From: Mobula hypostoma
Lineage: Eukaryota
Direction of reading: 5' to 3'
Assembly (NCBI RefSeq): GCF_963921235.1
Contig: NC_086108.1
Coordinates: 26,724,001-26,788,000 of the forward strand
DNA length: 64,000 bases
The notes beneath the pieces were generated by a model. That model was not told the origin of the DNA. It saw only the letters and a program-made list of their open reading frames with translations, and ran no database searches. The stretch's first letter is position 1. The number at the start of each line of letters is the position of its first letter. Below are positions 25,393 through 62,845 of the stretch, one piece after another. Both the position numbers and the translations under genes were made by a program.

Positions 25393-25458
25393 TTAGGGTT
25401 AGGGTTAGGGTTAGGCTTAAGCTTAGGTTTAGGGTTAGGCTTAGGTTTAGAGTTAGAG
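25393..25458 (+). repeat. Degenerate telomeric hexamer tract, 11 units
   Basis: TTAGGG x3, TTAGGC, TTAAGC, TTAGGT, TTAGGG, TTAGGC, TTAGGT, TTAGAG x2. Confidence 0.95.
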
Positions 25459-25695
25459 TTGGACAGCTGACAACCCTAGCTCCGCCCCTCATGCATCGCT
25501 GCCACGTCACCCGTAATACATTAACCCGGGTGGTGGTGGGAAAAGGAGTTAGGACTTGCCGCCGGCTAGCCGTGTGGTGCTGGATATGTGAATTAATAGT
25601 CCTTAGGCAATTGTTGAATGAGTTTTATTGAAATAATTAGCAATGTAGACAGTACAGTACAAATAGGTGTCATTGTACATTCATACAATGTATAA

Positions 25696-26790
25696 TCAAG
25701 CTTGTCTTGATGTTGAAGTGACCCTCAGTACCTGAGTGGTATTGCACCGCGGTGGTGTGCCTGGTACTTCGCCTGGTGTCTGAAGTTCAAACTCCACATC
25801 TGACATGTTGAATGAGCAGGGTACAGTAGTTGTGCCTTTAATTTCTGTCTGCTTAATTCTGGCTGTCGATTCTGCGTAAGGGAAAATGCCTTTTACTTTA
25901 GAAGCATTGAATTCTTGCTTGTTAGTGTCTGGAAGTGTTTCTAAATTCTACTGAGATACTGGGAACTTAGGTCTGTACTCGATCTTCATGTAAATCCTAA
26001 TATAACCCTCAACAGACTTAACAATGCTAACGTCAGGTGAGTAGCCTGGATCGGACTTGATAAGAATCTGCGGTGCCTTTGTATTGAACGCAATGTTCAT
26101 TAGCAAGCTGTAAGGAAAATGGACATGGGCAGGTGTCCTAAGGACAATCCTGTCAGTAGATTTCCATGCAGGTGTCACTTTGAATCTCCCTGCATTAGAG
26201 CCAACTCTTTTTTTTTCTTGGCGTGGACAGAATCCCTGCCAACTACTTCAGTCTGAGTGCTGTCAGCGACATTTGGATCAAAATTGGAAAGGAGAGGACT
26301 TACAGGAGCCTGGAATTTTTCTACTACCCATGATCTGTCGACTTGTAAGCTCGCATTGTTGAAAGGGTTGCAGCCAAATTTTAAGTTATTAAATCTGCTA
26401 ATCTCATTGCTTTGCCATGGGCCATTGATGTGGACAGTATATGGTATTGTTTCGCCCTCATATAAAACCACACTGTTTTCCATGACTGGGTCCTGTGTGA
26501 GGTCCTCATTCCAGTAAGCAAATACCGGTGGCTTGTACACAGCCAGAGGATCAATTGGGAAGTTATTGGGATTTAAGCCGGAGCAATAGGGAAGTCTCTC
26601 GGTGTCAAAGAGGATACTCACTCTGTTTGGTGCTGGGTACCAGCATCCTTTTTCTACGTCTGGTTTCCTTGTCTGAAATTCTCCAATAAATTAATTGATA
26701 GAGACGCATCGGAATTCAGATGCGCTAGCCATTAGAAATTGCTCTGCTCCCGGTGTCATGAAATTGCACCATTGACAGATGGTGCAAGAG
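25696..26790 (-). pseudogene. Endogenous parvoviral element: capsid (VP) pseudogene, ~365 codons
   Basis: Collinear VP-like motifs WCNFMTPGAEQFLMASASEFRCVSI, VSILFDTERLPY, DPVMENSVVLYEGE and KAPQILIKSDP...EGYIRIYMKIEYRPK; stops at 26691 and 25948; frameshift in the T-run at ~26208-26216; terminal TGA at 25696; minus-strand AATAAA at ~25624. Confidence 0.82.
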
Positions 26791-29815: not shown

Positions 29816-30166
29816 CCTAGAGAGGGATAGGCTCGGCCAGGTTTTAGATTGCCCAAGACCTGCCGTATGATGAGCATACCAAAAAAAGCTTGTCATAATG
29901 GCTCCCCAGCGACTCCACACACACAACATAACAGGCTGAAAGACCTGTTCCTTTACTGTTTTATTTTCCCTGATATATATGCAGAACAGGCATTCCTGTT
30001 GCCTGAAATAAATCATTCTGTTTGCTATAGTGAAAAATTGCTTTGTTAATCTGTTGTGGCCCCAAGAATCCATGGCATTATAGTGAAAATTTATAAGTCA
30101 TAGAGAGTGAAATTCTACTAGTACTGCTTGTCCTTCCTGCTCTGCTCCAACATCCTTGTAGATGAT

Positions 30167-42499: not shown

Positions 42500-44503
42500 G
42501 TATTGAAGATTACTTGTATTTCTTTACTTTAATCAGGCTCTTTGCATTGATATTTAATTTTCAAATCACACCAAGCTTAAATGATGAAATTTTCCCTTCT
42601 GTATCAACTAATTATTTCAAAATTTTCTTGACTAATCATTGATACTGTCGTTTATCTAGTTCATATGACTGTATGAGATAGACCAACAATTAAAGATACA
42701 CAACATTTACATCAATATGGAGTTGAGAGAGGTTGAAAGTGGGGGAGTGGGGGAGGGAGCGTTACGCTAGTGTAAGAAGGTTTCCGTGTAATGGATGATA
42801 ACCTTTGGTAGTGTTAATATTATTCCACATTGGCAAAGACATCTGACAATCAGGAGTAATCGTTCCATTCCCTTTTCGACAGAGCCTTTACTGTGGACTT
42901 CATGGAATATACTCGGGGGGCATTGCATGTGCCTAGGGCTAGACATTTTAAGATTTCATCCCAAACACCAATGAAACACAACACAAGCCATGAGAGGTTG
43001 TGTAAGGAAGAATGTACTTGAAGAGTACGTGCTCCAAAGGTGAGAAATAAGGGTGTTACTGTGCAAATAGTTGACCTGAATTCATTAAAGTGTTGAAGTG
43101 GAGCAAGATGGTTTAGCCAAGAATTGTGATGGATATTCACATCTTGCTCATCTTTGCTGAGCTTGCAAACTTAACTTGTATTTCTAAACACGTTTGAAAG
43201 GTCACAAACAGATATAGGTATATTTCTAACTTTATTGCTTTGTTTGTTTGGTTATAAAAGAAAATCAGTCTTCAGTTCTTAAAATGTAAGTGGAGCAGTA
43301 ATCAATTTGAAGTTAAAAAGCATTCTATGGAACAGCTTTGCAAATAAGCTATGCATTTTGAAGACACATTCTGTGTGAAAGTCAATGTCAGTAAATGCAC
43401 TTGCTTTATTTTTGTTCAAAAGTAAAGTATAAGACAATGAGTTGTTTAATCTAGACAGTTTAAACAGACTCTTGAGTTGCTTAGTTCAAGGAAGCTTGCA
43501 GAACAGATGGATAATATCATTTAGCATATTAGCATATCCATAACTGATATATTTATAGTTGGAATGGTTTTATGTATTCAGAAGTTGGCTTTACTGCATT
43601 AATTGTGGAACTATGTCTTCAAAAGAGTTTTTAAACAGTTTGTGTTAAAAGGTAATCTGAGGAAATATCACAAACAAGAGAAAATCTGCAGATGCTAGAA
43701 ATCAGAGCAACACACATAAAATGCTGAACGAACTCAGCAGGCCAGGCAGCATCTAAGAAAAGCGTACAGTCGGTGTTTTGGGCTGAAACCCTTCGGCAGC
43801 ATCTTTTCCTAGATGCTGCCGCCTGCCTGGCCTGCTGAGTTCGTCCAGCATTTTGTGTGTGTTGCTGAGGAAGTATCATATGTGTGTCACCCAAATGGGA
43901 GGAGATAGGATACAAATGTAAAGAACAGTAGAGGTTTAATAGGAATGTGGTAAGGAACATTAAGAAACATGGAAGAAACACTAGAATCCATTCCTCCAGC
44001 TTCTGATTCTGTGATGGATGATTAGTGTGCCTAAAACTCAAGGGGATGTGTTTTAGTTTATAGGAATTGTATAGGAAATCCCTTGTGTGTTGAACATGGT
44101 TTATATGGAAATCCTTTATCCTTTGTGTTTTGCGCTTTAGAAACAGTTTGTAATTTGGAAATACTTTATGAGATAAAAATTCTCTGTGTGTTTTAAATGA
44201 GTTTTAAAAGTGTTTGGATTTAAACGTGTATCACTGAAAATGAATGAACTATGTTTTGAACTAATTGTTAGCTGAAAGTATCTTCTCCTTGGTAGGGAGA
44301 GAGGACCCACCACTCAAATAGTAGGTATTGGCAGTTATACACACCATGCAGAATAAACTGGGAAGTAAACTGTTCCTTGGAGATTGGCTAGGTACAGTAT
44401 AATCTCACTTTAGTGAAGTATTTGAAGCTATTTATATCCAATAAGGCTTAAGGTCTTTGTTTGAGTTTGGAACTTTGTGGTCAGCAAACCCAATACCATC
44501 ACA
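42500..44503 (+). repeat. 5' LTR of the foamy-like provirus (contains a Penelope-type palindrome at ~43669-43865)
   Basis: Collinear with ~60200-62845 (shared AAATGATGAAATTTTCC, CTAGGGCTAGACATTTTAAGATTTCA, AAAGAAAATCAGTCTTCAGTTCTTAAAATGTAA); ends CCAATACCATCACA. Confidence 0.82.
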
Positions 44504-44505
44504 GT

Positions 44506-44523
44506 TGGCTCCCACTGTAGGCA
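44506..44523 (+). promoter_or_regulatory. Degenerate primer-binding site, tRNA-Lys1,2-like
   Basis: TGGCTCCCACTGTAGGC, 2 nt after the LTR-terminal CA; foamy consensus is TGGCGCCCAACGTGGGGC. Confidence 0.55.
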
Positions 44524-44600
44524 CCTTATACTAAAAGTATTATTTTAGAAATAATTGTTATTTAGCAGCAGTTGAACTCAGAGAGTTCTCAAAAAGTGTG

Positions 44601-45600
44601 ATGGCACCTTACCCAGTACTATAAACTGTTCAACATCCTGGTTTCCAGCAGTGGCACAGGCAAATACTAGTTGATATTATGAATGTGTTAATAGTATAGC
44701 AGAAATATGGGATAATATCCCAACTGCTCCTCAAATTGAACATGATGAATATTTTATTCTTGAAGTAAGATACTGGAATATGCAATGGGCTGGGTTGACC
44801 AGACCCAAACAGTTCGGGTGTCCAGGAGATGTGGTAATAAGTATATAACACAACAAAGCAACACGCCTAATTCATTATCATAAAATAGAAAGTACAAATA
44901 AACCACACAAAATACAACATAGTAAGTTATAAAGATTTCCACAAAGATTTCAGAGCTCACAATTCTTAGTCTCCATTTGATTGCTGCTGTCTTCGTGGTA
45001 GTTGATTGCTGCTGTTGTCAGGGGATCTCTGAATTCCAACTTGTGAAATCTTACTGGGTCTCCTTGGCACTGATCGTGATTCTTTGGTCTAGGTGAAGTT
45101 CCAAGAACCAAGGGAAAGGTGCCCCAATAAATAGGGGTTCCCAGATCACAGAGAGGCACACGGAGACAGACAAACTCTTTGATTTTTTCCTGTTCTCATG
45201 CCACTAGCTCAGCATGATTTCTTTAGGAATTCCACAAGTGTTGAGAGACAGGCAAAGGCAGATAACCTCAGTGGTCTTTTGTTCACATGCTTTTGGTGCC
45301 TGTGCCAGGAAAGAATCCAGCCACTCTCAGCAAACATTAGACATTAATAAACCTATAGTGTTTAACATGTAAAGACATCTTGCATGCTGCAAGCTCACAA
45401 AGAGTTAAAGTATCCTTTGGAGCTGTTCAGGCTTTCATCCAATATTTTACAAAATTGAATACATCACCACACAGAATGATGAAGGGATAGAATGTAAAGT
45501 CGGATTCAGATCAGACAGACCAAACACCATGTATGACCTGCTGAACTTAGAATATCACAATTTGTACCAGATTCCAACAATGCAGCAATAAATCTTGCCT
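44601..45600 (+). pseudogene. gag: Foamy-like gag, decayed
   Basis: NIPTAPQIEHDEYFILEVRYW at ~44714 (cf. PFV NIPRNPLHGEVIGLRLTEGW); LGEVPRTKGKVPQ*I at ~45089 (cf. TGEPPRNPREIPIWL); no CCHC knuckle seen. Confidence 0.65.
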
Positions 45601-45740
45601 GGAGGTAACAAATTGTCTCCTTTTTAGGTAAAAACCTAGCACCCTGGAGGGGACCACATGCTTATGTGATAGGACTTGGTGAACCATACATAATTCCGAT
45701 GCATGGGGATATTGTGTATTACATGTTTCAGGCACACATT

Positions 45741-45840
45741 AGGTAGTCCCCTTACCAGTAAACACTCCAGGTATTAATGAATCCCGGAGTGAGGTAGCCC
45801 CCTTACCAGTAAACACTCGAGGTATTAATGAATCCCGGAG
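45741..45840. repeat. Two-copy tandem duplication (51-bp period) in an unclassified, probably LTR-like insert (~45710-46295)
   Basis: AGGTAG(T/C)CCCCTTACCAGTAAACACTC(C/G)AGGTATTAATGAATCCCGGAG twice. Confidence 0.85.
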
Positions 45841-46399
45841 AACAGATGCCTGGGAAAATGCAAAGGAATTACTGAAAAGTGACCGTAGTCAATAAAAGAA
45901 TAACACAGGGACAGGTTCCTGCTCAGAAGTCTCAGCAGCTTCACTAGTACAAGCCACTCATCAGATTTTAGGATCTTTGACAATTCAGAGTTTGCAGGCA
46001 GAATGAGCTGGTGCTGAAGGAATTCTGAAGCTATTACTTCAGAATGCCGGGAGGTTACCGTGCTTCTGGGCCACTTGTACTCCACAACATAGTCAGCAAC
46101 TCTTATTAATGTTACCTCCCACAGTCTTGGTGGCACCTCCACACGAGTGTGGAAATCCATATTCTTATAGAAACACCTGCATGATGCTAAGCTAGGGCAC
46201 ATCATCAATGATGTTACCTGGGGTCATCAGGTGTTTCGGGTCTTTCAACATCATACACCCTCGCCCGGAAAATAAATGACACAGATGTACGGGGGAGACA
46301 TCATACTGTATTCAGTAAAATAGTCAAAAGGTGGGGATAAGAACGGCCTATATCAGAGAAGAAATGGGAAGGGCAGACTGGGAGCTAGCTCATTCTATA

Positions 46400-49015
46400 C
46401 TGTCCCCCCTGTATCCCAGTGTGTGGAACAGCCCTTAATCAACACCTGATCAGCAACTTCAGGATGTTAGAAATATCCTGTGCACCCACATGGTGGTAGC
46501 AGGTTTGCTGCTCATTCCTACAGAAGGGCAATAAGGTGGCAGCACATGGTCCTCATCAACCTGTCATCGTCCCAATGAACAGGGGCAGGCAGCCAAGTTT
46601 CAGCTTTCCAGGGAGTATAGTTAGTGACTGCTGTTGTTTTCAGGCTCAGTCTGCCAATTATTGTCTGCCACATTCCTTCAGGGAAAGTCTTGGTACTGAA
46701 TTGTAGGAGTCCTATTTTTGTACTACTATTAGTGATTTTGTCTTTGGACCAAGTCTGAGTCCATTCCAGACCTTACTTTGCACTTGGGTTCACCACCATC
46801 CATAGCACTCTGATTGCAGCACGATTGAGCCAACATGAACCTAGCAGAGTATAAATGTCTATGAACCACATTTGCCTACCAGAGAGCAACTGTAGGCAGA
46901 CATGACAATATGCTTCAGGAGATGCTCACCACTCTCCAGAAACTCTCCTACTCCAGTAGGCAGGATCCAAGTTTGGCCCATGTGGCTGCCAGTTCCGGCC
47001 AAGTTCAAGCTGGAGACGCAATGAGGGATCACTGCACCTACTGGCTCCCAAGTGGTGCGATGGTAACCCTGAAGTGCATCAAGGATTCCTGGTACAATGC
47101 TCCTTGGCCTTTGAGTTACAGCCAACCAAGTTCCCATTGGAACACAGTAAGGTAGCCTATATCGTCTTGTTCCATGCAGGAAGAGCTCTTGCCTGGTCCA
47201 CTGCACTCTGGGAGAAGGGTTCACTCATCACTGCCAGTGCAGACCTATTGTCAGACACTTTGAGGAAGGTATTCTATCACCCCACTGGAGGACATGGATC
47301 TGTGATAAAACTCCTCAACTTGTGCCAGGGGAATCAGTCTATGACCAATTATGCATCTTGGCCACAGAGAGCAGTTGGAATATGGAAGCACTAACTGCTC
47401 TAATCCATAATGGATTGAGTGATGAGCTAAAGGATGTCCTTGTGGCTCAAGACCCAGTGGAGGACCTAAAGAGTCGTATGGACCTGGCGATTTGATAACC
47501 GATTAACAGAAAGGAAAAGGGATAGATGAAGGGTATTATTCTGAAGAGACTCTTATCCCTGACTATCCTATGTCCTCTCCTATCTCCTGGGCTTAGGCTC
47601 CGCCTCAGCCACTGCTGATCCCAGTCTCCGAGGAGCCTATAAATATAGGCCAGACAAAGCTCTCTCAAGCTGAAAGAGAGAAGAGGGACTTACTGTAAAG
47701 AGGCCGGACATGATCAGATCTCTTGTCCCAAGCTGCTGGGAAACACTTGGGACTGTCCAATGAATGGAGGCCTGAGATGGCTGCTAGCATCACTCCCGGT
47801 TCAGCTCCCTCCAGCAAGATGCTTCCCTTCGCTTTCATGGAGAGACCAAAGACATTGCCTAGATGCACTGATTGACTCTGAAGCAGAAGGGAATTATTTG
47901 GGCCCCAGAATGGCCAGAAGATTAAAAATCTCCTTTTCGTTTCTCGGCCATTGATTCGTTGACAAGGCCTGGATGGGGGACCTTTAGTGTCAGGGCAGAT
48001 CAACCACCAAACATCCCTGCTCAAGCTCAAGACCAGCCAGCATGTGGAATCAATCCATCTCCATTCCATTCACTCCTCCAGAAAAGCCTCTCATTCTGGG
48101 TCATCCCTGGCTGTCATCCCACAATACGAGAGTTAATTGGACTACTGGGATTGTTCTGGGTTGGTCAAACCAGTGAAAAAAGAAATGCATCCAAAAGGAG
48201 CAGAAGACCTTCTAAGTTGCTATAGGAAATAGGGTTTACTTCTGAGACTACCACCGAGACTACTTCTGATATATTTCCTGAATTACCTGTTGAACCTTCC
48301 ACCTCTAACCCCATTGCATCCCATTTGTCTAGGGTACCTCCAGAATATTCATACCTACTGGAGGACTTCAGAAAAAGGCCACCATTCCACCAGCTCACCG
48401 GAACTACAACTGTGCCATTTATCTGATAATGGATATTTGTCCTCCTTGGAGACGGCATTATTCTCTAAGATTCCCAGAGAGGAAAGCCATGGAAGACTAG
48501 ATCCCAGAAGTTCTGGCATCTGGGTTTATTCAGCCATCCACATTTCCCATTTGGGCCTGGTTTTTGTCACCAAGAAGGATGGAGGACTAAGGCCTTGTAT
48601 TCTACAGGAAGCTACATAAGATCACTGTTAAAAATTGGTACCTCCCCTCTCACATGAACATGGCCTTTGAGATTCTCCAGGGTGCTACAATATTTATCAA
48701 ATTGGGTCTCCGTAGTGCCTACAACCTAATTCACATTCGTGAGGGAGACAAATGGAAAATGGCATTCAACACACTTACGGGCCACTACGAACACCGGGTC
48801 ATGTTTTTCGGGTTGGCAAAAGCTCCAGTGATATTTCAAGCCTTCATCATTGATGTGCTCTGGGAGATGCTTTCCATCTAGATGATATACTCATTTTCTC
48901 GTGGTCCACTCAAGAACACATCAACAAGACTGGCAGATTCGACAACAGCTTCTCAAGAATCAACTATTTCATCAATCTCGAAGAGTGAATTCCATGTATC
49001 CATAGTCTCCTTCTG
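46400..49015 (+). mobile_element. 3'-truncated Tf2/sushi-like Gypsy element nested in the provirus
   Basis: gag SKVAYIV..GRALAWSTALWE, protease [52 protein letters not shown] and LDDILIFS. Confidence 0.9.
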
Positions 49016-49641
49016 TGGAACGTCTTAAACATCCACTTCCTCTCCTGCAGTTCAGAGAAAACAAAAGGTAAAGAAGGGGACAGGCTAACGTTATGGTTAT
49101 AAAAATTGCACAAGGGAATTTCCATAACAGCTCTGATCAAAGTGTTCTATCTAATGAATAGGGTTATTACTCTAGATTTTCCATATGCCAATGCTCATAC
49201 TTTTGGCAAAATTTGACCCTGCCATTTTGATACAGCAACAGACATACAACAGGTGCTGCAGGGATTGACTTGTAAAAGTATAAATCTTGCACAGATCTGG
49301 CTGATAGCTTCTGGTCATACCAACTTCTTGAAAGTGACAGACAGAGGCTATGCAATTGACATTAAAAATGTTCTGCTTTGCTGTACTGAAGTAAAATTTC
49401 ATAGGTATGACAATTACCAATCAGGGACATGGTCTAACCCCTGAATTTAGACAAAAAAAATCACTTGATTAGGATATCCAATTATCATAAAAGCCTTCCA
49501 ATCAACCATAGAACTATTGAATTGTGGTAGAGCTTTCATACCTTACTAGGCTCAGTGTTAAAACCATTGCACAACAGATGTAATCCAAAAAATGCAAAGA
49601 CTTGTTTTTATCCCAGAAGGCTGAGGTACTAGTTGTAAAGT

Positions 49642-51439
49642 GTTGGCGAATGGCCAAGTGGTTAAGGCGTCGGTCTAGTGATCTGAAGGTCACTAGTTCA
49701 AGCCTCAGCTGAGGCAGCGTGTTGCGTCCTTGAGCAAGGCACTTAACCACACATTGCTCTGCGACGACACCGGTACCAAGCTATATCGGCCCTAGTGTTC
49801 CTCCCTTGGACAACATCGGTGGCATGGAGAGTAGTAGTAGTAGTAGTCATACTTTATTGACCCCGGGAGAAATTGGTTTTCGTTACAGTTATATCATAAA
49901 TAATAAATAGTAATAGAACCATAAATAGTTAAATAATAATATGTAAATTTGCCAGTAAATTATGAAATAAGTCCAGGACCAGCCTACCGGCACAGGGTGT
50001 CTGACCCTCCAAGGGAAGGGTTGTAAAGTTTGATGGCCACAGGCAGGAATGACTTCCTATGACTCTCTGTGCTGCATCTTGGAGGAATGAGTCTCTGGCT
50101 GAATGTACTCCTGTGTCCACCCAGTACATTATATAGTGGATGGGAGACACTGACCAAGATGGCATGCAACTTAGACAGCATCCTCTTTTCAGACACCACC
50201 GTGAGAGAGTCCAGTTCCATCCCCACAACATCATTGGCCTTACAAATAAGTTTGTTGATTCTGTTGGTGTCTGCTACCCTCAGCCTGCTGCCCCAGCACA
50301 CAACAGCAAACATGATAGCATTGGCCACCACAGACTCGTAGAACATCCTCAGCATCGTCTGGTAGATGTTAAAGGACCTCAGTCTCCTCAGGAAATAGAG
50401 ACGGCTCTGACCCTTCTTGTAGACAACCTCAGTGTTCTTTGACCAATCCAGTTTATTGTCAATTCGTATCCTCAGGTATTTGTAATCCTCCACCATGTCC
50501 TGGATGGAAACAGAGGTCACCGGTACCTTAGCTCTACTCAGGTCTACCACCAGCTCCGTAGTCTTTTTCACATTAAGCTGCAGATAATTCTGCTCACACC
50601 ATGTGACAAAGTTTCCTACCGTAGCCCTGTACTCAGCCTCATCTCCCTTGCTGATGCATCCAACTATGGCAGAGTCATCCGAAAACTTCTGAAGATGACA
50701 AGACTCTGTGCAGTAGTTGAAGTCCGAGGTGTAAATGGTGAAGAGAAAGGGAGACAAGACAGTCCCCTGTGGAACCCCAGTGCTGCTGATCACTGTCGAA
50801 CACACAGTGTTGCAAGCACACATACTGTGATCTGCCAGTCAGGTAATCAAGAAACCATGACACCAGGAAAGCATCCACCTGCATCGCTGTCAGCTTCTTC
50901 CCCAGCAGAGCAGGACGGATGGTGTTGAACGCACTGGAGAAGTCAAAAAACATGACCCTCACAGTGCTCGCTGGCTTGTCCAGGTGGGCGTAGACACGGT
51001 TCAGCAGGAAGATGATGGCATCCTCAACTCCTGGTCGGGGCTGGTAGGCGAACTGGAGGGGATCTAAGTGTGGCCTGACCATAGGCTGGAGCAGCTCCAG
51101 AACAAGTCTCTCCAGGGTCTCCATGATGTGGGAGGTCAATGCCACCGGTCTGTCGTCATTGAGGCCGCTGGGGCGCGGTATCTTCAGCACAGGGACGAGG
51201 CAGGACGTTTTCCACAGTACAGGAACCCTACGGAGCCTCAGGCTCAAGTTGAATACATGGCAAAGTACTCCACATAGCTGAGGGGCACAGGCTTTGAGCA
51301 CCCTGGTACTGACACCGTCCGGTCTTGTAGCCTGAGAGTGGAAGCTTGCAGCCATCCATATAACTTTGCCCAGGCCTGCGCCCTGGAATCCATTCAAGGC
51401 ACAAATCCATGGTCTCACAAGACTAACAGATGCCTATAA
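49642..51439 (+). mobile_element. tRNA-derived SINE split by a Rex LINE
   Basis: A box TGGCCAAGTGG and B box AGTTCAAGCC at ~49651-49705; body appears to resume at ~51340. Confidence 0.7.
49833..51333 (-). mobile_element. 5'-truncated Rex1/Babar-type LINE
   Basis: FFDFSSAFNTI, GVPQGTVLSP, KFSDDSAIVG; (CTA)n tail; probable TSD GAGAGT at 49827-49832 and 51334-51339. Confidence 0.92.
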
Positions 51440-51719
51440 GAGGCACTAGGGAACTTGATGGATGCAGTTTAGCAAGCAATAGGGTTCCAGATAAGATACT
51501 TAACAAAATCTCTTGTTCAGAGAATTTGTGTTTCTCCAAGAACCGCTGTAGCCATCTGCTCTAAAGAGGCAGAAAAAACACAAGCCCCCATACACTATAC
51601 CTCATATAATTTCACCCCAACAGAACAGAAATTTACTGCTTTACAACTATGCTTTACTATGATATTCTGTACACTTATTGCAGTAAGACTGCAAGGAGGC
51701 AAACCAAATATTGCACAAA

Positions 51720-53832
51720 CGATACACTACCTTGTACTTGCCTCTTTACCTATTCCTCTGGCTTGTCCTTAACCCATGACAGAGTGAAGAGCAGGAACTG
51801 CCCTGAACATATTATCTTTGATCGTCTCCCTTTCCTAGTTCTGCTCACTAATGTTGTGTATGGGTATGCATGTTGCTTGCCACAGCTTGAGGGAGGTTGG
51901 AATTTGTCTGTCATGAATAATTGGTCTAATAACACAAACTCACGGAAAGATGGGGTGATAAACATGATTTTTCACTCAACTATTCGGCTGTTGCAGATTT
52001 ACTTTTTCATATGGGTAACTTTTTATATATACAGTTCTTAAGGTTTTCTATATAGTGTAGATATGTTGCGCATTGCTAATGATAGCATTGTATCAGCATC
52101 AGTATCAAGTTTAATATCACTGGCATATGTGATGAAATTTGTTGTTGATATTAAAGCTGATTCTTATTCTGTCATGGTTTACACCTTTGACTTTTAAAAC
52201 CATCTATCTTACAATATTTACTCTGTTATGTTACACAGTGCTAAAACACAAGGAGTAAAGAGATATCTACCCCGAGGAGCAAGATAGCCATCCCTGAGGA
52301 ATGCTATACTCCCAATAGTCTTTTTTACCTATTCTGCTGTGATTTCTTCAGAAACAAAGATGTGATCCTAAGGCCTCTGAGACTGATAAAGCACTATATT
52401 GTCACAAGGTAGAGCTGTCTGAATGTGTTTCACTTACTATTTGGGTATAAGTATATATTGTGTAGGTGGTTCTTCTACAGTGCAGCAAATAGGACCACGA
52501 GACCTACCAATATTGGTATTTGGGTTGAACTTAATAGTTTGTATATTTAGTTGTATATTTGGTTGACAAAATCCCATGGTCTAACAGAACAGACTGAGTA
52601 GCCTTGCTATGTTAAAGTTCTCTTTGAAAACATAGAAGTTAGAAAGATGTGTCAATTCTTCACAGTTAGACTCAATCCCTATCAAAGGAAACCTTGAACA
52701 ATTGTGCACAGAGTTCAGAATCACATATGCAGGTGGTATGGTTGTTGTTAGACTGTTACACGCAGGCTTCAGTTCTTTGCGGGAATCGAACCCCTTCTCG
52801 GGGATCCACGATAGGTCGCTGTTCAACATGTCAAGAGTTTGGCCTGAGAATCTCGATCGTGTTTGGAAGCCTAAGATCTCAGGGCTTTGGAGACGGGCGG
52901 ATTGATGGTTGGTGTCACGGCAGGAGACTCGTGTGTCGTCGGGGAGGCTGGAAAATCTTTCACTGTGGGCCCGAAGACCCGAGGTCTTTGTGATCTTTGG
53001 ACACAGAGCTGGATAAAAGCGACGAAACAGACTTTTAGGATTGTAAACCAGTGGGTTGCTGTTATGTCTCCCGCTCGCTGTGAAAATGGGGGACACCTCC
53101 CTCTCCCTTGCCAGGGAGAGAGAGAATCTGTCGTTTGTCGAATTTTGGATGCAATTGTCACTTTTGCACAGTAACTCATTTTATTGCACATGTTAAGTAC
53201 AGCAAACTAATACACAAAGACATGGCAAAAGTCAAGGCAAACAAATGAGGTAACAGCAAATTTCACTTTTGCCCAGTAACAAGCCTTATTGCATTTAGTT
53301 GTAGCTGTCGTCCCTTTCATCGATGAAGAGACTATGGCTGTGGGAAATGTTTCTGGACAAACGCACACCAAGTCTTTCGTTTGGCAATTTCCTTTTAAGT
53401 TTTTTCTTGTCTGTAACTGGACAAACGTGCACCAAGTATACCATTTCCTCTTCGCTTGTTTTCTGTGTGTCCTGCGCATGTCCAGTAGGAGGAGATTCAC
53501 CCAAATATCCATTTTAATGTGGACAGGAGTATTTTCAAAAACGCCTAGTGTGGACGCCTGTCATTTTTACGCGAGACTGGCATTTTCAAAATTATCCGGT
53601 CTAGTGTGGACGTAGCCTGAGATGTCTGCGCAGGAATGAACACAATTAACATGCCATTTTATGAAAGTGACAGTAATTAACTCTTGGTTTGACAGTGTTG
53701 GAGGGAAGATCCAGGCATTTGAACAAGACATGTAAGTCAAAAGAAGCATCATGAGGGCATTGTAACTATAGAAATTTTCCTGTTACATTTGTTTCTTAAC
53801 ATATAAAAACTTGCTGTAATGTTGGGTTGGGG

Positions 53833-53867
<35 letters not shown>

Positions 53868-54383
53868 CTCTCTCGACATATAAGTGACTTCAAAAGGCTG
53901 TCAGATTATTTGTGTGTGCAATGAATAAAAGTCTGCTTTATATCTCCGAGCTGTGTCTCTCCGGTGACTCTGTTCCCATTACAACACTGCTACCAGAGGA
54001 TGACTGGCCTTTTTTAAAATTTATAGAGAAATGACACTTGGAATAATCTGATGATTTAATCTATGTTGCTTATTTTAAGACTAGAATGCAAATCCAGTTT
54101 TTGGATACAACAAAGAATGTTCCAGAAGGACTTAATATTCTTCACCAATGGCTAGAAGGAACTCGGTCAAATTTAAGGAATATTTATTTATTCATGCTGA
54201 GACACTGAACTAACACATTGAGATGAGCAAGGCAGCTCCTTTCACAAGGCTCTTCTTCATGGTGATACAAGGCTTTTGACGGACTTAACCCTCCAGCTGG
54301 AGCAATAGCTACGATTTTTCCAGCTGTTGCATATTTAGCTTCCACAACAGCGAATTCAGTTTCGGGTGGATTAGCACTACTGT
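51720..54383 (+). pseudogene. env: Foamy-like env, copy A (interrupted at ~52754-53986)
   Basis: VFHLLFGYKYILCRWF (~52424), LFENIEVRKMC (~52620) and LLHGDT...GAIATIFPAVAYLASTTANSVSGG (~54250-54375). Confidence 0.75.
52754..53986. mobile_element. Composite LTR-like insert containing a Harbinger-like MITE end
   Basis: TGTTACA start, AATAAA and ACAACA end; CTAGTGTGGACGTAGCC terminus at ~53601-53617; (CT)n at ~53835; absent from env copy B. Confidence 0.55.
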
Positions 54384-54519
54384 AGCAAACAAGAGAAAAT
54401 CTGCCTATGCTGGAAATCCAAGCAACACACACAAAATGCTGAAAGAACTCAGCAGGCCAGGCAGCATCTATGGAAAAGAGTATAGTTGACATTTCAGGCT
54501 AAGCCCCTTCAGTCCTGCA

Positions 54520-56340
54520 CCTTGGGTCTGTCATAAGTAATTGGTCTAATAGCACTAACCCATGGAAGGATGAGTTGATAAACATTATTTTTCACTCACC
54601 TCTTTGGATGTTGCGTATTTAATTTTGGGGCCTCCAAGGTTTAGAAAATATTACTGTATATCGTCACTAGAACTGTTTGAATGTGTTTTGCTTACTATTT
54701 GGGTAAAGTATACATTGTAAACAATGTACAAAGTATACATTGGTAAAGTATGTGATACTCCTACAATGCAACAAATAGGACCACTTGGCCTATCAGTATT
54801 GCTACTTAATGTTACAAGGATAGTTTGTATATTTGTTTGATAAAAATCCATTGTCTGATAGAACAGACTGAGTAGTCCTGCTTTGTTAAACTTTTCTGGG
54901 AAAACATGAAAGTTAGGAAGATGTGTCAATTCTTCTCAGTTAGAGCTAATCCTTAACAAAGGGGGAAAACCTGAACAATTCTACATAGAGTTCAGGATCA
55001 TTAAAAGGGTAAGGAACTTATGGTTGATGTCAGAATGTTAAGTTACACCATACCAGACATACTGTAACCAGAGGATCACCTGTTGTATATTTCAAGGCAG
55101 GATGCAAGTCCAATCTTTGGGTGCAACAAAGAATATCTAAGAAGGACTTGATATTCTTCAACTTCCGGTTTCAGATGGTGCCACCAAATGTGTGCGACAT
55201 CTCACTGGCAATTGTAAAGGCAAGAAATTTGACTAAAAACATTACAAATAACACTTTTCCTGAAGTAAGTTGAGGTAAATTGTCACCACAAACAATGAAT
55301 TTGAGGGAGGAACCATGCTGCTACGTGACAGAATTGACGCAAATGGAATAAGCCATTTGTAAAGAGAAGCGAAGGCAGAGGAGTTTCGGCTTCTGTACAG
55401 CTGGCCTGGGTACAAGGTTGGATTGCTATGGGTGGTGTGCCGATTTGGAGAAATTGAGAGTGGCTTTGGGATGAGTGGTGATATCTGGGCCCACAGCAAA
55501 TAACAGGGTAGAATGGTGTAAGCCCAGAACCTTTCACTGCAGTGGTGTTCATGTTCGGACCCTAGTGAGAGGTAAAACACACTGTTTGGACAATATTTAT
55601 GCTGGATCAGATAGACTGGAAGTACAGGGTGTCAGGATTGGAGGCGAGAGCCAATTTTGCTTGCTGTCTGTGATGTTCACTCCTTTCTCCATGGCACAGA
55701 GGATATGCTGTGCTCCATGCTGCTAATATGATGAACTGATACTGAGGCTTTGTACTGCCTCCAGCCTGCCCGGGCTTCAGATCTAAGGACTGGTTTTGGT
55801 TTGGAATGTCATTGCTCGCTTCTGTTGTTTGCAAGATTTGTGTTTTGATTCCCTTTCTCTGCGCGTCTGGTGTTGGTCTTTTTTTTATTAGTTTTTTTTT
55901 TGCATTTCTAGCTTTGTGGCTGCCTGTAAGCAAACAAATCTCAAGGTTGTATAATTTATACATTCTTTGATAAACAATGTACTTTGAAACAATGGCAAGA
56001 AGAAACTCAGTCAAATTACAAGAACATTTCTCTATACATTCTAAGAGTCACTGAACTGGTATAATCAGATGAGTGAGGCAAAAGTTTCTTTTTCATATTC
56101 ATGCTCAGCCCCTGACTGGATTAAAACTCTAGCTACAACAATAGCTGAGACCTTTCCAGCTGTTGCATATTTAGCTTCTGCAGCAGGGAATACAGTTTCT
56201 GGGTGAATTGGCACTACTTTAAATTGGGTAGAAGATTTTTTTTTGGTTTCCAATGTACATTTTCCCTAGCCATTGGAATTATTGTTTTTGTAGTGCTCTT
56301 TTTGCTGAAATGTTGAAGCCTGCAAGGATGGAAGTTTGGA
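54520..56340 (+). pseudogene. env: Foamy-like env, copy B (interrupted at ~55163-55990)
   Basis: LFWENMKVRKMC (~54891); DWIKTLATTIAETFPAVAYLASAAGNTVSG at 56114 (cf. PFV AWIQQLAAATKDVWPAAASALQGIGNFLSG); membrane anchor LAIGIIVFVVLFLLKC at 56266. Confidence 0.8.
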
Positions 56341-57069
56341 GAACTTTGCCTTTTTTTATAACGGCTCCACTCTTAAGGCTCTGTGAACTCCCATACCTAA
56401 CCTGTAGTGTAATGGGTTACGTCTCCTATGACAGCCTTGCTATCTCCCGCCTTATTACCTATTCCTCTGATTCATCCTCAACCCTGGAAGAGCGAAGTGT
56501 GGGGATTGCTCCGACCATATTATCATTGCTCCTCTCCCTTTCCAAGTCATGATCACTAACCTTGCATATGGGTATACATATTTCTCAACCCCTTGGGGGA
56601 CGTTGTGATGTGTCTGTAATGAATGAAGTGTTGACAAACATTATTTTTTACTTACCTATTTGGATGTTGCAAATCTATTTTATAACATAGGTTGTAATAA
56701 GCCCATCAGGACTGTGCAGAAAGCTGAAGAACAGTGGGTTCCAAGGTTTTTAGAGCAGCTGAATTGGTGAATTGTTGTTTAATGAAAGTTGTTAATCCTC
56801 CCTGGTGCTTCTATTTAAGCTTGTTAAATTTATTTTTACAGCCTCGGGAATTCCGTGTTACCTGTGTTATTTAAGCGGACAGTCTATTAGTACTACTGCG
56901 GAGTCTTATTTTTGAGAATATTACATCTCAATGTGTTGCTTGCCCTAGCCATCTATGTGGTAGCTCTTATGAAGAAACCCTGGTTGCCGGCTCCACATGG
57001 AAGTCTGTCTTTCCTTTACATTTGTGTCTCGTCATTGCCAGTGCACTTTGTGACATGGGTAACTTTGTA

Positions 57070-57102
<33 letters not shown>

Positions 57103-57619
57103 GCGATTCTTAAGATTATATAAGTGGACTTTGTAAACCTGTTCTTCACTGTTAATGCTGGTTTTAAACCACAGTACTGCAAAGCCTTAGGCTCTCTAGG
57201 TATTTTTTTATGGTTCCAGATGGTATGGCCACATGGATCCCTGATCTCAAATCATCAAAGCTATCTGGGATTCACCTTGACAGTCACAAGCAAGCGAGAA
57301 AGGCAATGTCTGCAGAAGAAGCATATAACAATTACAGCACGGAAACAGGCCATCTCGGCCCTTCTAGTCCATGCGGAACTCTTACCCTATCCTAGTCCCA
57401 CCGATCTGCACTCAGCCCATAACCCTCCATTCCTTTCCTGTCCATATATCTGTCCAATTTAACTTTAAGCGACAACATAGAACCTGCCTCAACCACTTCT
57501 GCTGGGTGCTCATTCCACACAGCCACCACTCTGAGTAAAGACATTCCCCCTCATGTTACCCCTAAACTTTTGTCCGCTAATTCTCAACCCATGTCCTCTT
57601 GTTTGCATTTTCTCCACTC

Positions 57620-57875
57620 TGGAAGAACTGTGGAATGTTCTCCAATATGCTTGGAACAAACTACCAGTTGGTTTTCTTATAAAACTGCATGACAGTATTC
57701 CTAAGAGAATTAATGCACTTTTAAACTCAAAGGGTGGATATACCAAATATTAATTTGATTTAATTTTAAAGTAATTTTTTTAATATTTAGAAACTTTTCA
57801 TTTGATTATTTTTGAAAGCATCTTTGCTTTGCAGATTTTTTTTACATATGCCTAAGACTTTTGCACAAAACTGTA
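57620..57875 (+). mobile_element. Tc1-like transposon 3' end, preceded by a minus-strand CR1 3' fragment (~57320-57620)
   Basis: IPKRINALLNSKGGYTKY* and terminal CCTAAGACTTTTGCACAAAACTG-TA. Confidence 0.8.
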
Positions 57876-58205
57876 TTATAGTTCATATTTTTATATTCAA
57901 ACTATCTATCTTGCTATATTTTGTGTGTTATGTAATGTAATGGTGAAAAACCAATGAGGAGGAGAAAGATAGCTACCCTTGAGGAATGATATTCTCCTGA
58001 TAACCTTCTTACTTAGAGTGTTGTGATTTCTTTGGAAATGGAGATGTAAGCTGAGGGCCTCCAAGGTCTACAAAGCATTATATTTTCACAAGGTAGAACT
58101 GTTTGAATATGTTCCACTTACTATTTGGGTATAAGAATATATTCCATAAGTGGTACTCCTACAATGCAACAAATAGGACCACTAGGCCTATCAGTATTGC
58201 TATTA

Positions 58206-59965
58206 GGACATAGAAGAGTATAGCACAGGAACAGGCCATTCAACCCAAAGCATTGTCCTGAACCAACTAAAAAGCAAATCAAAAACACCCAAATTCTAAT
58301 CCCTCCTACCTACACCATATCTATATCCCTCCATCTTCCTTAAATCCATATACCTATCCAAATGTCTCTTAAAAGCCTCCAATGTATTTGCCTCTACACG
58401 GCATCCATGACACTCTGAGTAAAACATTTACTCCTCACATCCCCCTTGAACCTACAACCTCACATCTTTGGTATTAGACACTTCACCTATTCCTGCTCCT
58501 TTCTCAGCAAAGTTTCAGTATTGCTACAACTTTGTAGTTCCATGTACTGATCCGTGCCTTGTTCATCACCCTTACTCATAATGCTCCAAGCGTTAAAACA
58601 TACACACTTTTAACTCTCCGATGTATCATACCTGTAATTTCAATTTTGTCTTTCAATACTTATCCTGACCTTTTGGTCCGATCCTTCCTAGCCCCCTGCA
58701 AAATGAGTTTAAACTCTCCCAAGTAGCATCAGCAAACCTCCCGGCCAGGATATTGGTTCCCCTCCAGTTCATGTGCAACCCGTCCCTCTTGTACAGGTCA
58801 TGCTTTCTCCAGAAAAGATGATCTAAAAACTTGAAACACTGTTCTGTGCACCATCTCTGCAGTCACTCATTCATCTGTGCTGTCATCCCATTCCTACCTA
58901 CTCTACCCCACAGCACAGGGTTAATCCGGAGATTACAACCTCGGGGGTCCTTCTCTTCAGCCTCTTTCCTAACTCTATATACTCACTGCATAGGACCTCT
59001 TCCCCGTTTCTGCCTATGACATTGGTGCCAATATGCACCACAACCTCTGGCGGCTCCACCTCCCATGAGAAAATCCTGCAGCTGCTCTAATACATCCTGG
59101 ACCCTGGCACATGGAAGACAACACACCATCCTGGTGTGTCTTTTGCAGCCACAGAATCTTCTTTCTGTCTGCCTATGTATTGAGTCCCCTATCACTACCG
59201 TACTGCCTGACTTTACTCTTCCCTGTCAAGCCTCAGAGCTGGCCACAGTGCTACCAGCCTGGCAGCTGCTGCAGTAATCTAATGGGTCATCCCCCCCTGT
59301 AGTACCTGTTGGGACATTGCTGAGGGGAATGTCCACAGGGGACCCTACTCTGACTTCTTAATCCCCTTACCTCTCCTGGTGGTTACCCATCTACTGTCCA
59401 AAGCCTGTACTCTGGGTGTGTCCAACTCTTCAAAAGTCCCGTGTATCATATCTTCAGCCTCCTGAATGATCCTGAGGACATCCATCTCCTTGACCTGATC
59501 AGTCAGTCGCTGAAGTTGGAGGCATTTCCCACAGACGTAGTCATCAGGCAAACTGTCGGGTGTCCTGAATCCCCGTATCTGACAGGAAAAGCCTTCCATC
59601 CTGACTACTCAATAGCAAAAAAGAAAAAAAATATTTGCTTCTTCTTAACTGTGCCTTTGCCTTTTCATGCTGAAGCTTATTAAGCCAAAACCTTCACACT
59701 CGATCATTGGCACACTCCGATAATGGCCGTTCCAACAATTGCTGCTCCACTTGAGCCTCCCCTTCTTAAATTTGCAGCTAAGGTTAGGTCTCTGGCACTG
59801 ACATTTCCCAAAAGACTGGCTTTGCACAAATCTGCTCCTTTTATCCTCTCTCTCTTAAACATCCATGGGGTTACACCAAAACACATTCCTCTCACCCAAG
59901 CCACTAAGGAAATATTGCCTTTACCCGAGTTTACTCTTTTTAGACTTGCATTCCTTACTTAATAA
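58206..59965 (-). mobile_element. Internally deleted CR1-family element (ORF1 plus 3' end)
   Basis: PDDYVCGKCLQLQRL and esterase-like IGDSI...MVCCLPCARVQDV; CR1 3' end at ~58210-58480. Confidence 0.75.
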
Positions 59966-60199
59966 TACTTTTTGTTGCAAAGATATTTTGTATATTTGGT
60001 TGATGAAATTCCATGATCTGACAGAACAGACTAGGTAGCCTTTGCACAGTTAACATTTTCTGGAAAAACGTTCAGATTGGTATCACAATTTTAAGTTGTA
60101 TCAATGGGTGTTCACTCCCATAGGGGACATAATCAACCCCAATGTTGTGACATCTTTTTTTCTGTGAGCTTAGAATTAAAAGTACAGACTGAATCTCAG

Positions 60200-62845
60200 C
60201 AAAGGAATTGTACTCTTTCTTACTTTGAAAATCTTAATTTTTATGTATATAATTATATTGTGAAATCATGTCGCTGATGGATATAATTTTCTAGAATTAA
60301 AATGATGAAATTTTCCTTCTGTATCAACCAATTATTTCAAAATTGCTTTTCACTAATCTAATGTCCTTTATTTAGTTCATATGGCTTAGTGTGAGATAAA
60401 CCAAGAATTATAGCTGCAGCATTTGCACCATCATGAGAGAAGTTGAAGGAGGGGCTTTATGCAAAATAGTGTTGGAAATTTCAGTGTAATGGATGATACT
60501 CTTTGGTAGTGCTGCACAGACAATGTCATGGTCCCGACCGTTAATTCTCCATTTTCTCCTAATTCCCCATTTTCTCCTAATTCCCTTTTTGATTGTGCCA
60601 TGGTCCCAACCGTTAATTCCCCATTTTCTCCTAATTCCCTTTTTGATTGTGTCATGGTCCCGACCGTTAATTACCCATTTTATCCTAATTTGCTTTGATG
60701 GTGGCACACCTGGTTTTCATCAAGACCTGCATAAGAACCCCAGCTTTGTACCCACTAGTTGCCAGATCGTTGCTTTCCCAGTGTGGCCCGGCTACTTAGG
60801 ATTGTGTATTCTAAGTTTTGCTTCAGTACCGAGACTTACCTGTGAAACTCAGTCTCTTCGTGTCAAGATAAGTATTCTAAATCTTACTTCCGCACTGAGG
60901 TTTACCTGTGTAACTCCATCTCTCCATGCTAAGAAAAGTTTTGTCTGCCACTTTCCTTTCTACACTCTGTGTCAAGATAAGTTCTGCCTGCCTCCTGCTT
61001 TCCTGCACTCCCTCCTGTTTGCCATTCAACATTCACACCCACATCTGCATCCTAACTTAATCTCCGTGCCTGTGTTCTGCGTTTGGGTTCGCCTCCTTTG
61101 TTGCAACAGGCAAAGATATCTGGCAATCAGGAGCAATCATTACATTCCCTTTGGACAGAGCCTTTGCTGTGAAACTCATGGAAAATACACTGGGACATTG
61201 CGTGTGTGCGTCTAGGGCTAGACATTTTAAGATTTCAACCCAAACACCAATAGAACACAGCACTAGCCATGAGAGGTTGAGTAAGGAAGTGTGTGCTTGA
61301 AGTGTGCATGCTTTAAAGGTGGAATAGGAAGGTGCTGCTGTGCAAATGGTTGACATGAATTCATAGAAGTGTTGATGTGGAGCAAAGTGTTAAAAGCGTG
61401 AATTGTAATGGATATTCACTTCTTGCTAATGTTTGCTAAGCTTTCTTTCTAAACACAAGCAGCCACCATTTGAAAGATCACAAACAGTTGTAAGTGAACT
61501 TCTAAATATATTGCTTTGCTTAGTTTCTGGTTGTAAAAGAAAATCAGTCTTCAGTTCTTAAAATGTAACTGGAAAGCAGTAATCAGCTTGGAGTTAAGAA
61601 AGCACTTGCTATAGTACAGCTTTGCAAACAACCTATGCATTTTGAAGACAGTCTACCTGTGACAAAGCAGACTCAAATCACTGCATCTGCTTTATTATTG
61701 TTTAAATGTAGAGTACAAGACAATGGATTGTTCAATTTAGGCTCTTTCAAACAGACAAGTAGACTCTAAAGTTGCTTAGTTCAAGGAAGCTAGCAGAACA
61801 GTTGGATAATATCATTTAGCATATCAATAATATAGAGAGCAGTTAAGGCTTATTAAGAATGGGGTAAGGAACATCAGGAAAGTTGGAAGAAACACAATGT
61901 GAACAAGAATCTATTCCTCCAACTTAGGTTTCTTCAATGCACAATTTGATTGTCTGAAACTTGAGGGTATGTCTTTTTAGTTGATTGGAATTGTACCTGT
62001 GTTTTAGAAATCCATTGTGTTGCAAATGGTTGATATAGAAATCCTTTGTCATTTGTGCTTTATGCTTAATGGTTTGTAATTTGGAAATATTTATAAGTGA
62101 GAGATCCTCTGTGAGATTTACAAGTGTTTTAAGAGTGTTGTTTGGATTTAAACGTATAACACTGAAAATAAATAAACTGCATTTTAAACTATTTTGTGAG
62201 CTGTTGGTATCTTCCTATTGGTAGTGAGAAGGGAACCATCACTTGAATAATGGATATTGGCAACTAAGTTCACTGTAGAGAATACATATAGAAGCAAGCT
62301 AGCTTTTGGAGATTGGGTAGTTAAAGTATAATCTCCCTTTAGTGAGAGTGCTCATGGCTATTTTATTATCAGAGAGTGCTTGATTACTTTGTTTAGAAAT
62401 TTGTGTACTACGGTTGTGCAGCAATTACCATGATGTATTTCAGCATGGGGTCCACTTGCTCCACTTCAACTCTTTTATGAATTCAAGTCAACCATTTGCA
62501 CAGCAGCACCTTCCTAATCCACCTTTAGAGCATACGCGCTTCAAGCACACACTATTTCAGCATGCAGAGTTTGGAGTTCAATCCTGGCATCCTCTGCAAG
62601 GAGTTTGTATGTCTCCCCTGTGGAACATGTGGGTTTTCTCCAGGTCCACCATCCACCCCCTGCCCTCCAATGTCCAAAGACATACCGGTTAGTAGGTTAA
62701 TTGGTCATTGTAAATTGTTCTGTGATTAGGGTAGGGTTAAACCTCGAGTTTGGCAGGTAGCACAGCTCAAAGGGCCAGAAGGGCCTATTCCACGATGCAT
62801 TTCTAAATAAATACATGAAATATAAAGAAAGCCAATACCACCACA
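60200..62845 (+). repeat. 3' LTR of the foamy-like provirus (with solo LTR and SINE insertions)
   Basis: Collinear with the 5' LTR; ends CCAATACCACCACA at 62845; AATAAA at ~62168. Confidence 0.82.
60524..61108 (+). mobile_element. Solo LTR with internal tandem repeats, inserted in the 3' LTR
   Basis: TG...CA ends; near-TSD GACAA/GGCAA; absent from the 5' LTR; TG(T/C)CATGGTCCC(G/A)ACCGTTAATT three times at 60524-60690. Confidence 0.8.

Follow-up and report, generated by a model that had tools for sequence, protein, structure and literature searches.

A three-fold repeat of mostly post-env sequence in a defective foamy-like provirus of Mobula hypostoma

A provirus in the genome of Mobula hypostoma carries the same blocks of sequence three times, head to tail, which raises the question whether a retrovirus with three tandem env paralogues once integrated here, as the original prediction had it, or whether something else was repeated. 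We find that the three-fold repeat is real and that the repeated element is not three env genes. All positions refer to the window, the whole 64,000-nt stretch that was analysed (NC_086108.1, 26,724,001-26,788,000, forward strand). The locus is an old, defective foamy-like provirus, one scrambled copy of a family with at least 130-270 decayed copies in this genome; 27 of at least 214 candidate family loci were read at length (±10 kb) as sister proviruses. Outside the repeat, its parts are as follows.

42582..43124, + strand: extra segment of ~540 nt before the 5' LTR; the same segment also precedes the 3' LTR
43125..44500, + strand: 5' LTR of the family type, its start placed from sister 5' LTRs and from the purine tract preceding sister 3' LTRs
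44501..44525, + strand: putative primer-binding-site position, immediately following the LTR, as in the sisters
44526..46554, + strand: leader and gag-position remnant, common to sisters
49026..49620, + strand: reverse-transcriptase remnant with weak foamy Pr125Pol PDB matches, present in sisters
51437..51718, + strand: pol connection remnant (PF17919/PF17917, E 0.017-0.024)
51719..51721, + strand: deletion junction linking pol connection to post-env region, with RNase H, integrase and env through to its end lost
60303..61403, + strand: the extra segment again, interrupted at about 60513-61108 by an insertion
61404..62358, + strand: 3' LTR, truncated at its 3' end
62455..62553, - strand: part of the extra segment in short inverted form, with 91% identity to 61288-61385

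The 5' LTR shares its end with the sister 3' LTRs and contains a later SINE-like insertion near 43670-43900; the primer-binding site behind it is decayed and may resemble a tRNA-Lys site. The leader and gag-position remnant, which is interrupted at about 44781-45472 and has no Pfam match, is presumably gag, given its position and its likeness to gag. A LINE insertion parts the reverse-transcriptase remnant from the pol connection. Probes for RH/IN, envN and envSU matched nowhere in the window, which retains the env tail twice and the membrane anchor once; all other env sequence has been deleted, together with RNase H and integrase. The target-site duplication is unreadable because the 3' LTR lacks its 3' end, and no RNA holder appeared among the matches listed.

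Endogenous foamy viruses of cartilaginous fish, a host group that the look of the SINEs and LINEs here would also suggest, have reportedly been described by Wang, Chen and Cui in 2023. The predicted foamy-like nature of the present provirus is supported by matches that are weak but converge. The top three PDB matches of the window reverse transcriptase were all foamy Pr125Pol (E 0.16-0.24), all three matches of the sister Pol to E 1 were Pr125Pol or an RNase H chain, likewise weak, and the sister integrase end weakly matched PF18103 (E 0.012). Foamy-type Env (PF03408) was found in the family, with every match under the curated cut-off: five of six sister env pieces match positions 337-420 (best E 9.6e-05), and window positions 56087-56239 match 905-942 of 982 (E 0.027). 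A strict PF03408 search of the whole genome returned nothing, its controls likewise being blank; env profiles recovered no foamy chain from PDB, Env/Pol profiles or pieces no relatives in a word-indexed protein search, and long six-frame Pfam scans nothing. Foamy-like endogenous retroviruses (ERVs) carry, according to one study (PMC5210030), a GGGTG motif at the purine-tract/LTR border; we found it there in sisters (e.g. L043/44, L049/50 and L099/100), whereas in the window the extra segment replaces the purine tract.

Self-alignment of the repeat gave 12 off-diagonal matches of 38-200 bits, with none in 20 of 20 doublet shuffles. Three motifs trace it, two of them occurring three times (52486, 54772 and 58170; 52586, 54860 and 60023) and one twice (54320 and 56156). 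Of the 8,356 bases in the stretch 51720..60075, 3,329 are viral and the others belong to later insertions. Phased by the sister proviruses, the repeated unit is ~1.6 kb long and combines the final third of an env tail of kb scale with ~1 kb of accessory sequence from behind env, arranged as follows.

51719..52761, + strand: unit U1, 1,043 nt, post-env blocks a-d without env
52762..53981, no strand: cluster of later insertions within the U1/U2 junction
53982..55055, + strand: unit U2, env tail without anchor (53982-54384) and post-env b, part of c, and d (54520-55055)
55054..55057, + strand: U2/U3 junction, where post-env block d ends and env sequence begins at an internal point, with a 2-nt overlap
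55056..60302, + strand: unit U3, env tail, anchor and post-env sequence, with four insertions between viral pieces
56087..56316, + strand: env end, comprising the membrane-proximal stretch and the sole membrane anchor of the window

Each unit has private insertions. A SINE-like insertion accompanied by a deletion separates the env tail of U2 (to 54384) from its post-env part (from 54520), and the viral pieces of U3 lie at 55056-55162, 55988-56692, 57091-57169, 57876-58207 and 59962-60302. The predicted head-to-tail recurrence is thus confirmed, as is the substantial divergence of copies bearing their own insertions (21-28%, K2P). Three env paralogues are not what recurs, since U1 has no env and U2 no anchor. 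Describing the blocks as env-derived was right for the motif found twice, which alone falls in env, and wrong for both motifs found three times, which sit behind the membrane anchor. No env array has taken over the accessory region; it is this region that is repeated, together with a stub of env.

The anchor reaches a hydropathy of 2.57, above the 95th percentile of shuffled sequence (2.21), and a stop follows it in most sisters listed. None of the 12 frames of blocks a-d in the three copies matches PF03408. Accessory frame(s) are found between env and the 3' LTR in the family, and stop-triplet counts suggest that the post-env region was formerly coding on the sense strand: across 19 sisters there are 51 sense-strand stop triplets versus 64 in shuffled sequence, compared with 66 versus 69 antisense, and long open frames across a-d lie on the sense strand in 36 of 38 cases, although longest-frame medians are not raised (66 versus 63). 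Neither strand of the repeat unit has a long frame free of shared stops, so the phase of the frame across the unit is uncertain. The post-env frame had no match in Pfam or Atlas and a single chance bacterial match in a 1.84-billion library. An antisense gene in blocks c-d, where the strand looks open by eye, was ruled out by shared stops in all minus frames and by the sense bias, and a multi-pass membrane protein behind env by hydropathy, which exceeded the shuffled 95th percentile in only one of eight post-env pieces.

The sister proviruses run from env tail through membrane anchor and post-env blocks a-d to the pre-LTR stretch and LTR, and none of the 27 repeats blocks a-d. Double matches there are mostly probes split by insertions; genuine additional copies are 60-110 nt of the 'end' block in L113/14 and, in L119/20, a leader located after the 3' LTR. 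The U2/U3 junction and the pol/post-env deletion junction are each spanned by none of the 39 other matches listed (for the former, 40 of 67 candidates were scored). In the loci examined, independent proviruses do not share the triplication. The first junction (U1/U2) is obscured by insertions; relative to the U2/U3 breakpoints, the end of U1 lies within ~10 nt and the start of U2 within ~5 nt, so that both array junctions lie at nearly identical breakpoints.

Misassembly had been raised as an alternative, and no contig among those listed covers the entire array. However, the copies are 21-28% apart and carry private insertions, contigs of organisms B, C and E match different units at about 2-11% difference, and both junctions recur in related species: a 554-nt contig of organism B bridges the U2/U3 junction with 8 differing letters, and one organism C contig bridges the deletion junction with 32 letters on its short side. 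Given that related species share these junctions, the array is old, and we regard misassembly as refuted.

The distances between units (K2P, HSP-based) are 0.214 [0.167-0.267] for U1-U2, 0.276 [0.228-0.326] for U1-U3, for which an alignment-based estimate is higher (0.343), and 0.248 [0.205-0.291] for U2-U3. They do not exceed the distance of 0.265 [0.229-0.308] between the family-type LTRs of the locus, as copies predating integration should; this and the single-unit sisters are both results that the original prediction had named as refuting its multi-envelope reading. The array is about as old as the LTRs, and divergence of this size fits duplication during reverse transcription and shortly after integration equally. 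For seven of eight sister LTR pairs the distance is 0.15-0.33, the eighth (0.607) being left out as a mis-pairing. Divergence of the units is neutral: the share of mismatches falling at the top codon position, 0.427, is no different from the null value (0.434, p 0.71), whereas a simulated coding control gives 0.598. The tree is star-like, with terminal branches of the units (~0.15) equal to those of independent proviruses. Within it U1 and U2 are joined by L002, another provirus with a single unit that lies 850 kb away on the same contig (support 95/83), and a U1+U2+U3 clade is rejected at borderline (AU p 0.045), a signal that depends on few sites; a 32-row tree holds U1-U3 and L002 together (85/97). 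Minority states common with L002 number 1.3 per 100 sites in U3 and 2.1-2.7 in gag, RT, U1 and U2 (medians 0.6-0.9), and indels common with L002 are at background (2 of 18, versus 0-3 for others).

Further duplications surround the array. The second copy of the extra segment stands in place of the family pre-LTR stretch and purine tract and differs from the first by K2P 0.161 [0.122-0.207] over 419 sites; the segment was not found in the sister proviruses. As the U3 region of a variant LTR it was ruled out, lying outside the LTR by the sister LTR starts; including it would lower the LTR distance from 0.265 to 0.236. About 5 kb upstream of the window lies an inverted duplicate of the 3' end of the locus (K2P 0.168), which carries the deletion of unit U3.

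Together these data suggest a local accident and not a three-envelope virus, since the repeat is mostly post-env, absent from the sisters examined and as old as the insertion. We consider it probable that a ~1.6-kb segment of one defective provirus was amplified in tandem to three copies, once, in the host chromosome soon after integration, in keeping with the local amplification offered originally as a fallback. This host-side reading is favoured by the single-unit sisters, the uniqueness of the junctions among the matches listed and their near-identical breakpoints, by unit distances near the LTR distance, star-like branches and the missing codon-position signal, and by later host-side copies at the locus (the inverted 3' end, the extra segment and the piece at 62455). 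We infer the following order: a first duplication, using the 2-nt overlap, would have fused the terminus of block d with an internal position of env; the same junction would then have arisen again when the tandem copies exchanged unequally; and a separate deletion would have taken out RNase H, integrase, the bulk of env and the env portion of U1, after which insertions and neutral decay would have followed. Reverse transcription deletes long near-identical direct repeats at high frequency (PMC3187697), so that the array would not be expected to persist in a replicating virus. Purely in-place amplification nevertheless predicts a U1+U2+U3 clade, whereas U1 and U2 group with L002.

A rather unlikely alternative is an origin in the round of reverse transcription that produced this provirus. 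The templates would have been two co-packaged genomes from different sub-lineages, a non-homologous switch between them making the first duplication and a further switch, or a later host exchange, the third copy, leaving a one-off defective provirus. The borderline rejection of the three-unit clade, the paucity of L002 states in U3, the 2-nt overlap and an array age equal to that of the LTRs all fit, and template switching is described as generating deletions and duplications in the same source (PMC3187697), which also calls non-homologous switches rare. However, the position of L002 on the same contig points to exchange at the level of host DNA over co-packaging, the same junction arises twice more easily through unequal exchange, and later host-side duplications are present at the locus. 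The array could also be the only trace so far seen of a low-copy viral sub-lineage with a duplicated or triplicated accessory region. The reduced sense-strand stops, an accessory duplication in AciFLERV (PMC5512871), a U3 that may have split from U1/U2 before L002, and a sample of 27 among at least 214 loci leave room for it, yet we hold it improbable: no sister read has the repeat, the junction is unique among the 39 matches listed (40 of 67 candidates scored), neither a codon-position signal nor excess divergence is seen, and the units start in mid-env instead of at a gene start. Similarly small is the chance that this locus alone survives from a recombinant foamy-like virus whose tandem accessory copies came from two sub-lineages and encoded an accessory protein without known relative, perhaps a second surface protein. 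Still less do we credit a retrovirus with three envelope genes, the main original reading, which we regard as refuted unless the post-env frame is an Env homologue and the array recurs at other insertion sites. The env tail is indeed present twice, and the post-env frame could conceivably encode a distant second glycoprotein; but blocks a-d fail to match PF03408 where five of six sister env pieces and the env end of the window do, U1 has no env, U2 has no anchor, no env sequence ahead of the tail occurs in the window, and where present the unit is single in 27 of 27 sisters.

The array, which has no evident function, is as found of little weight, being part of one scrambled family copy. It offers a useful warning: when sister copies are not consulted, an internal repeat may be wrongly phased and taken for env. 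The family as a whole, with its short env, its accessory frame and an orthologous copy in several related hosts, could help to date the foamy-like viruses of these fishes, and if the array were viral, it would record accessory-gene expansion through recombination between sub-lineages.

A literature search, with most subscription papers outside its coverage, returned no foamy or other retrovirus with multiple env genes. Among known systems, the foamy-like ERVs (FLERVs) of fish and amphibians are laid out as LTR-gag-pol-env with unidentified accessory frames after env (PMC5512871, PMC5210030). The present family resembles them in this layout, in the GGGTG-like border of its sisters and in its weak foamy Pol and Env matches, and differs in its env, which appears to fall ~0.8 kb short of the span of the Pfam foamy Env; the present locus, unlike them, is deleted and internally triplicated, with an accessory frame that matched nothing searched. 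Post-integration ectopic recombination has been described as reshaping proviruses in a published account that places no such event in env, whereas here the env tail and accessory region are affected. A further likeness is to the cichlid foamy-like virus AciFLERV, in which post-env accessory sequence is also repeated, as the lineage-specific duplicates acc1a and acc1b (PMC5512871); those paralogues are whole genes of the viral progenitor, whereas the repeat described here runs from mid-env, is seen at one locus and has diverged neutrally.

The array is a locus-specific triplication of an env-tail/accessory segment in a decayed foamy-like provirus, real but ordinary, and not a set of three env paralogues. 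The recurring motif positions listed in the original prediction were borne out, and self-comparison of the repeat region gave 12 off-diagonal alignments (38-200 bits), with none in any of 20 shuffles. The surrounding provirus has an LTR pair, a pol connection remnant and an RT remnant whose best three PDB matches, at a weak E of 0.16-0.24, are all foamy Pr125Pol. Its pol is broken up by inserted elements, recognized from their frames, which we take to be Gypsy-like and LINE. From the look of its repeats, the host is probably a cartilaginous fish.

Features of the provirus (window coordinates)
42582-43124: extra segment, ~540 nt, before the 5' LTR
43125-44500: 5' LTR, member of the LTR pair
51719-52761: tandem unit U1
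53982-55055: tandem unit U2
55056-60302: tandem unit U3
60303-61403: second copy of the extra segment, before the 3' LTR
61404-62358: 3' LTR, member of the LTR pair; cut

The gag-position remnant carries a tandem duplication of 51 nt (45741-45840). Elsewhere the window holds an LTR element, presumably Gypsy-like, with LTRs 93% identical and gag-, protease- and integrase-like frames (16699-22002); a 171-aa open frame on the minus strand that is not repeat-like and is possibly a host exon (26175-26690); an interstitial telomere-type GGGTTA array of ~12 copies (25390-25460); and a young inverted LINE pair, 95% identical (1-1159 and 30162-31356).

In sister copies of the provirus in this genome, pol and env are followed by the membrane anchor, post-env blocks a-d (consecutive pieces of the accessory region), the pre-LTR stretch, the purine tract and the LTR. 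Window 56000-56620 has 39 other listed matches, and in 34 of these the env tail continues into block a for over 100 nt. The closing part of the Pfam foamy Env model (positions 905-942 of 982) is matched by window 56087-56239 at an E of 0.027, and five of six pieces of sister env upstream of that stretch match model positions 337-420 (best E 9.6e-05). Across blocks a-d, 12 frames were compared with the model and none matches. The unit is therefore env tail for ~0.55 kb and post-env sequence for a further ~1.05 kb, and the start point assigned to the presumed env copies A, B and C was wrong. Three env paralogues are likewise not what the window contains: there are three copies of blocks b, c and d, two of the env tail and of block a, and a single anchor, and neither upstream env nor RNase H nor integrase is found in it. 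All three units are broken: each has 11-17 gap openings when aligned with a compact sister, and no frame is free of stops.

The post-env region was probably once coding on the sense strand, with 51 stop triplets observed versus 64 shuffled and 36 of 38 long frames in that orientation. Its hydrophobicity is mostly accounted for by T-rich composition, and a search for relatives of the frame in Pfam, Atlas and a 1.84-billion library returned nothing beyond one chance bacterial match.

Misassembly was ruled out by contigs of other organisms that bridge the junctions. Sequencing runs of other organisms contain the array stretch; a 554-nt contig of organism B crosses the U2/U3 junction and differs at 8 letters, further organism B contigs run across the ends of U1, U2 and U3, an organism C contig bridges 51720 with 32 letters on its short side, and organism E contigs map to U1 and U3 at ~7-11% difference. 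None of the listed contigs spans the full array, and the organism A runs, which may be the assembly source, are not independent. At the U2/U3 junction the end of block d is fused to a point within env with a 2-nt overlap. The U1 end and U2 start, separated by 1.2 kb of insertions, fall within ~10 and ~5 nt, respectively, of the same breakpoints.

The family is large (at least 214 candidates, the best 40 listed at 72-80% identity), and env-tail matches in the genome number 131, almost all of them carrying stops. The idea that independent proviruses share the triplication did not hold, as blocks a-d are repeated at none of 27 sister loci, a subset of those candidates with some loci incomplete, each examined over ±10 kb. 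With a query across the U2/U3 junction (best 40 of 67 candidates scored), none of the 39 other listed matches passes query position 127, the junction itself; with one across the pol deletion at 51720 (best 40 of 271 scored), every one of the 39 others is confined to one side. In 7 of 13 sisters (loci L035-L038, L087/88, L091/92, L109-L112, L115/16) the anchors matching PF03408 near 367 and 905, the upstream one a weak match, lie only 755-818 nt apart where ~1,600 is expected, which points to a short family env or to a deletion already in the progenitor. Small rearrangements appear not to be rare in the family, since of the sisters L119/L120 and L113/L114 one has a second leader behind its 3' LTR and the other a displaced piece of pre-LTR block.

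Copies more diverged than the LTRs would point to an origin before integration. In local alignments K2P distances are 0.214 (0.167-0.267) for U1-U2, 0.276 (0.228-0.326) for U1-U3 and 0.248 (0.205-0.291) for U2-U3, against 0.265 (0.229-0.308) for the family-type LTR pair, so no such excess is seen. Medians against 29 sisters are 0.27-0.29, and the multiple alignment gives 0.248, 0.343 and 0.262 in the same order, next to 0.278 as the median between sisters. The tree is star-shaped, its terminal branches measuring ~0.15, and unit-unit mismatches have no codon-position bias (0.427 versus 0.434, p 0.71); the corresponding value in a simulated coding control is 0.598. The units were therefore near-identical when the provirus integrated, or close to that point, and their later decay was neutral. 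Reverse transcription, according to the excerpted text of PMC3187697, deletes long direct repeats at high frequency, which argues against upkeep of the array in a replicating virus.

It is reasonably probable that the array arose by tandem duplication and then unequal exchange soon after integration; a duplication within the provirus would have been followed by exchange between the copies, yielding the repeated junction. This junction, together with host-side copying at the locus, favours such an origin. A host-side copy of the provirus 3' end in inverted orientation (L084) lies ~5 kb upstream of the window (G000:C50 ~26717660-26719270, minus strand); it comprises half of block d, the extra segment and most of the LTR, has the block d deletion of U3, and differs from window 59962-62400 by a K2P of 0.168. 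The extra segment lies outside the family LTR, in place of the family pre-LTR stretch and purine tract; its two copies are 0.161 apart, and it is seen only here and in the inverted copy nearby, not in sisters. A short inverted piece lies just past the cut 3' LTR.

Against amplification in place, U1 and U2 cluster with the single-unit provirus L002 (support 95/83), and the data narrowly reject U1+U2+U3 as a clade (p 0.045). Both results would fit a template switch between two genomes packaged together, as would the minority states in common with L002, at 2.1-2.7 per 100 sites in gag, RT, U1 and U2 and only 1.3 in U3. However, this L002 signal comes from few sites, indels in common with it are at background level, and its position on the same contig, 850 kb off, is hard to square with co-packaging. 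We regard a template switch as rather unlikely. For gag, RT, U1 and U2 the nearest sister is L002 (L031/L032, G000:C50 ~27.62-27.63 Mb), which has one unit and the common pre-LTR stretch.

A study of cartilaginous-fish foamy viruses (PMC9972966) may, to judge by its title, already describe the family to which this provirus belongs. A literature search at title level found no multi-envelope foamy virus, and the available portions of PMC10699275 and 10.1101/2021.11.23.469661 contain nothing on multi-env genomes. Among known elements, the excerpts of three papers describe accessory frames located after env, together with a GGGTG border motif, in fish foamy-like ERVs (PMC5210030), unequal crossing over and conversion acting on ERVs (PMC10536682), and a duplicated accessory gene, acc1a/acc1b, in one cichlid lineage (PMC5512871).
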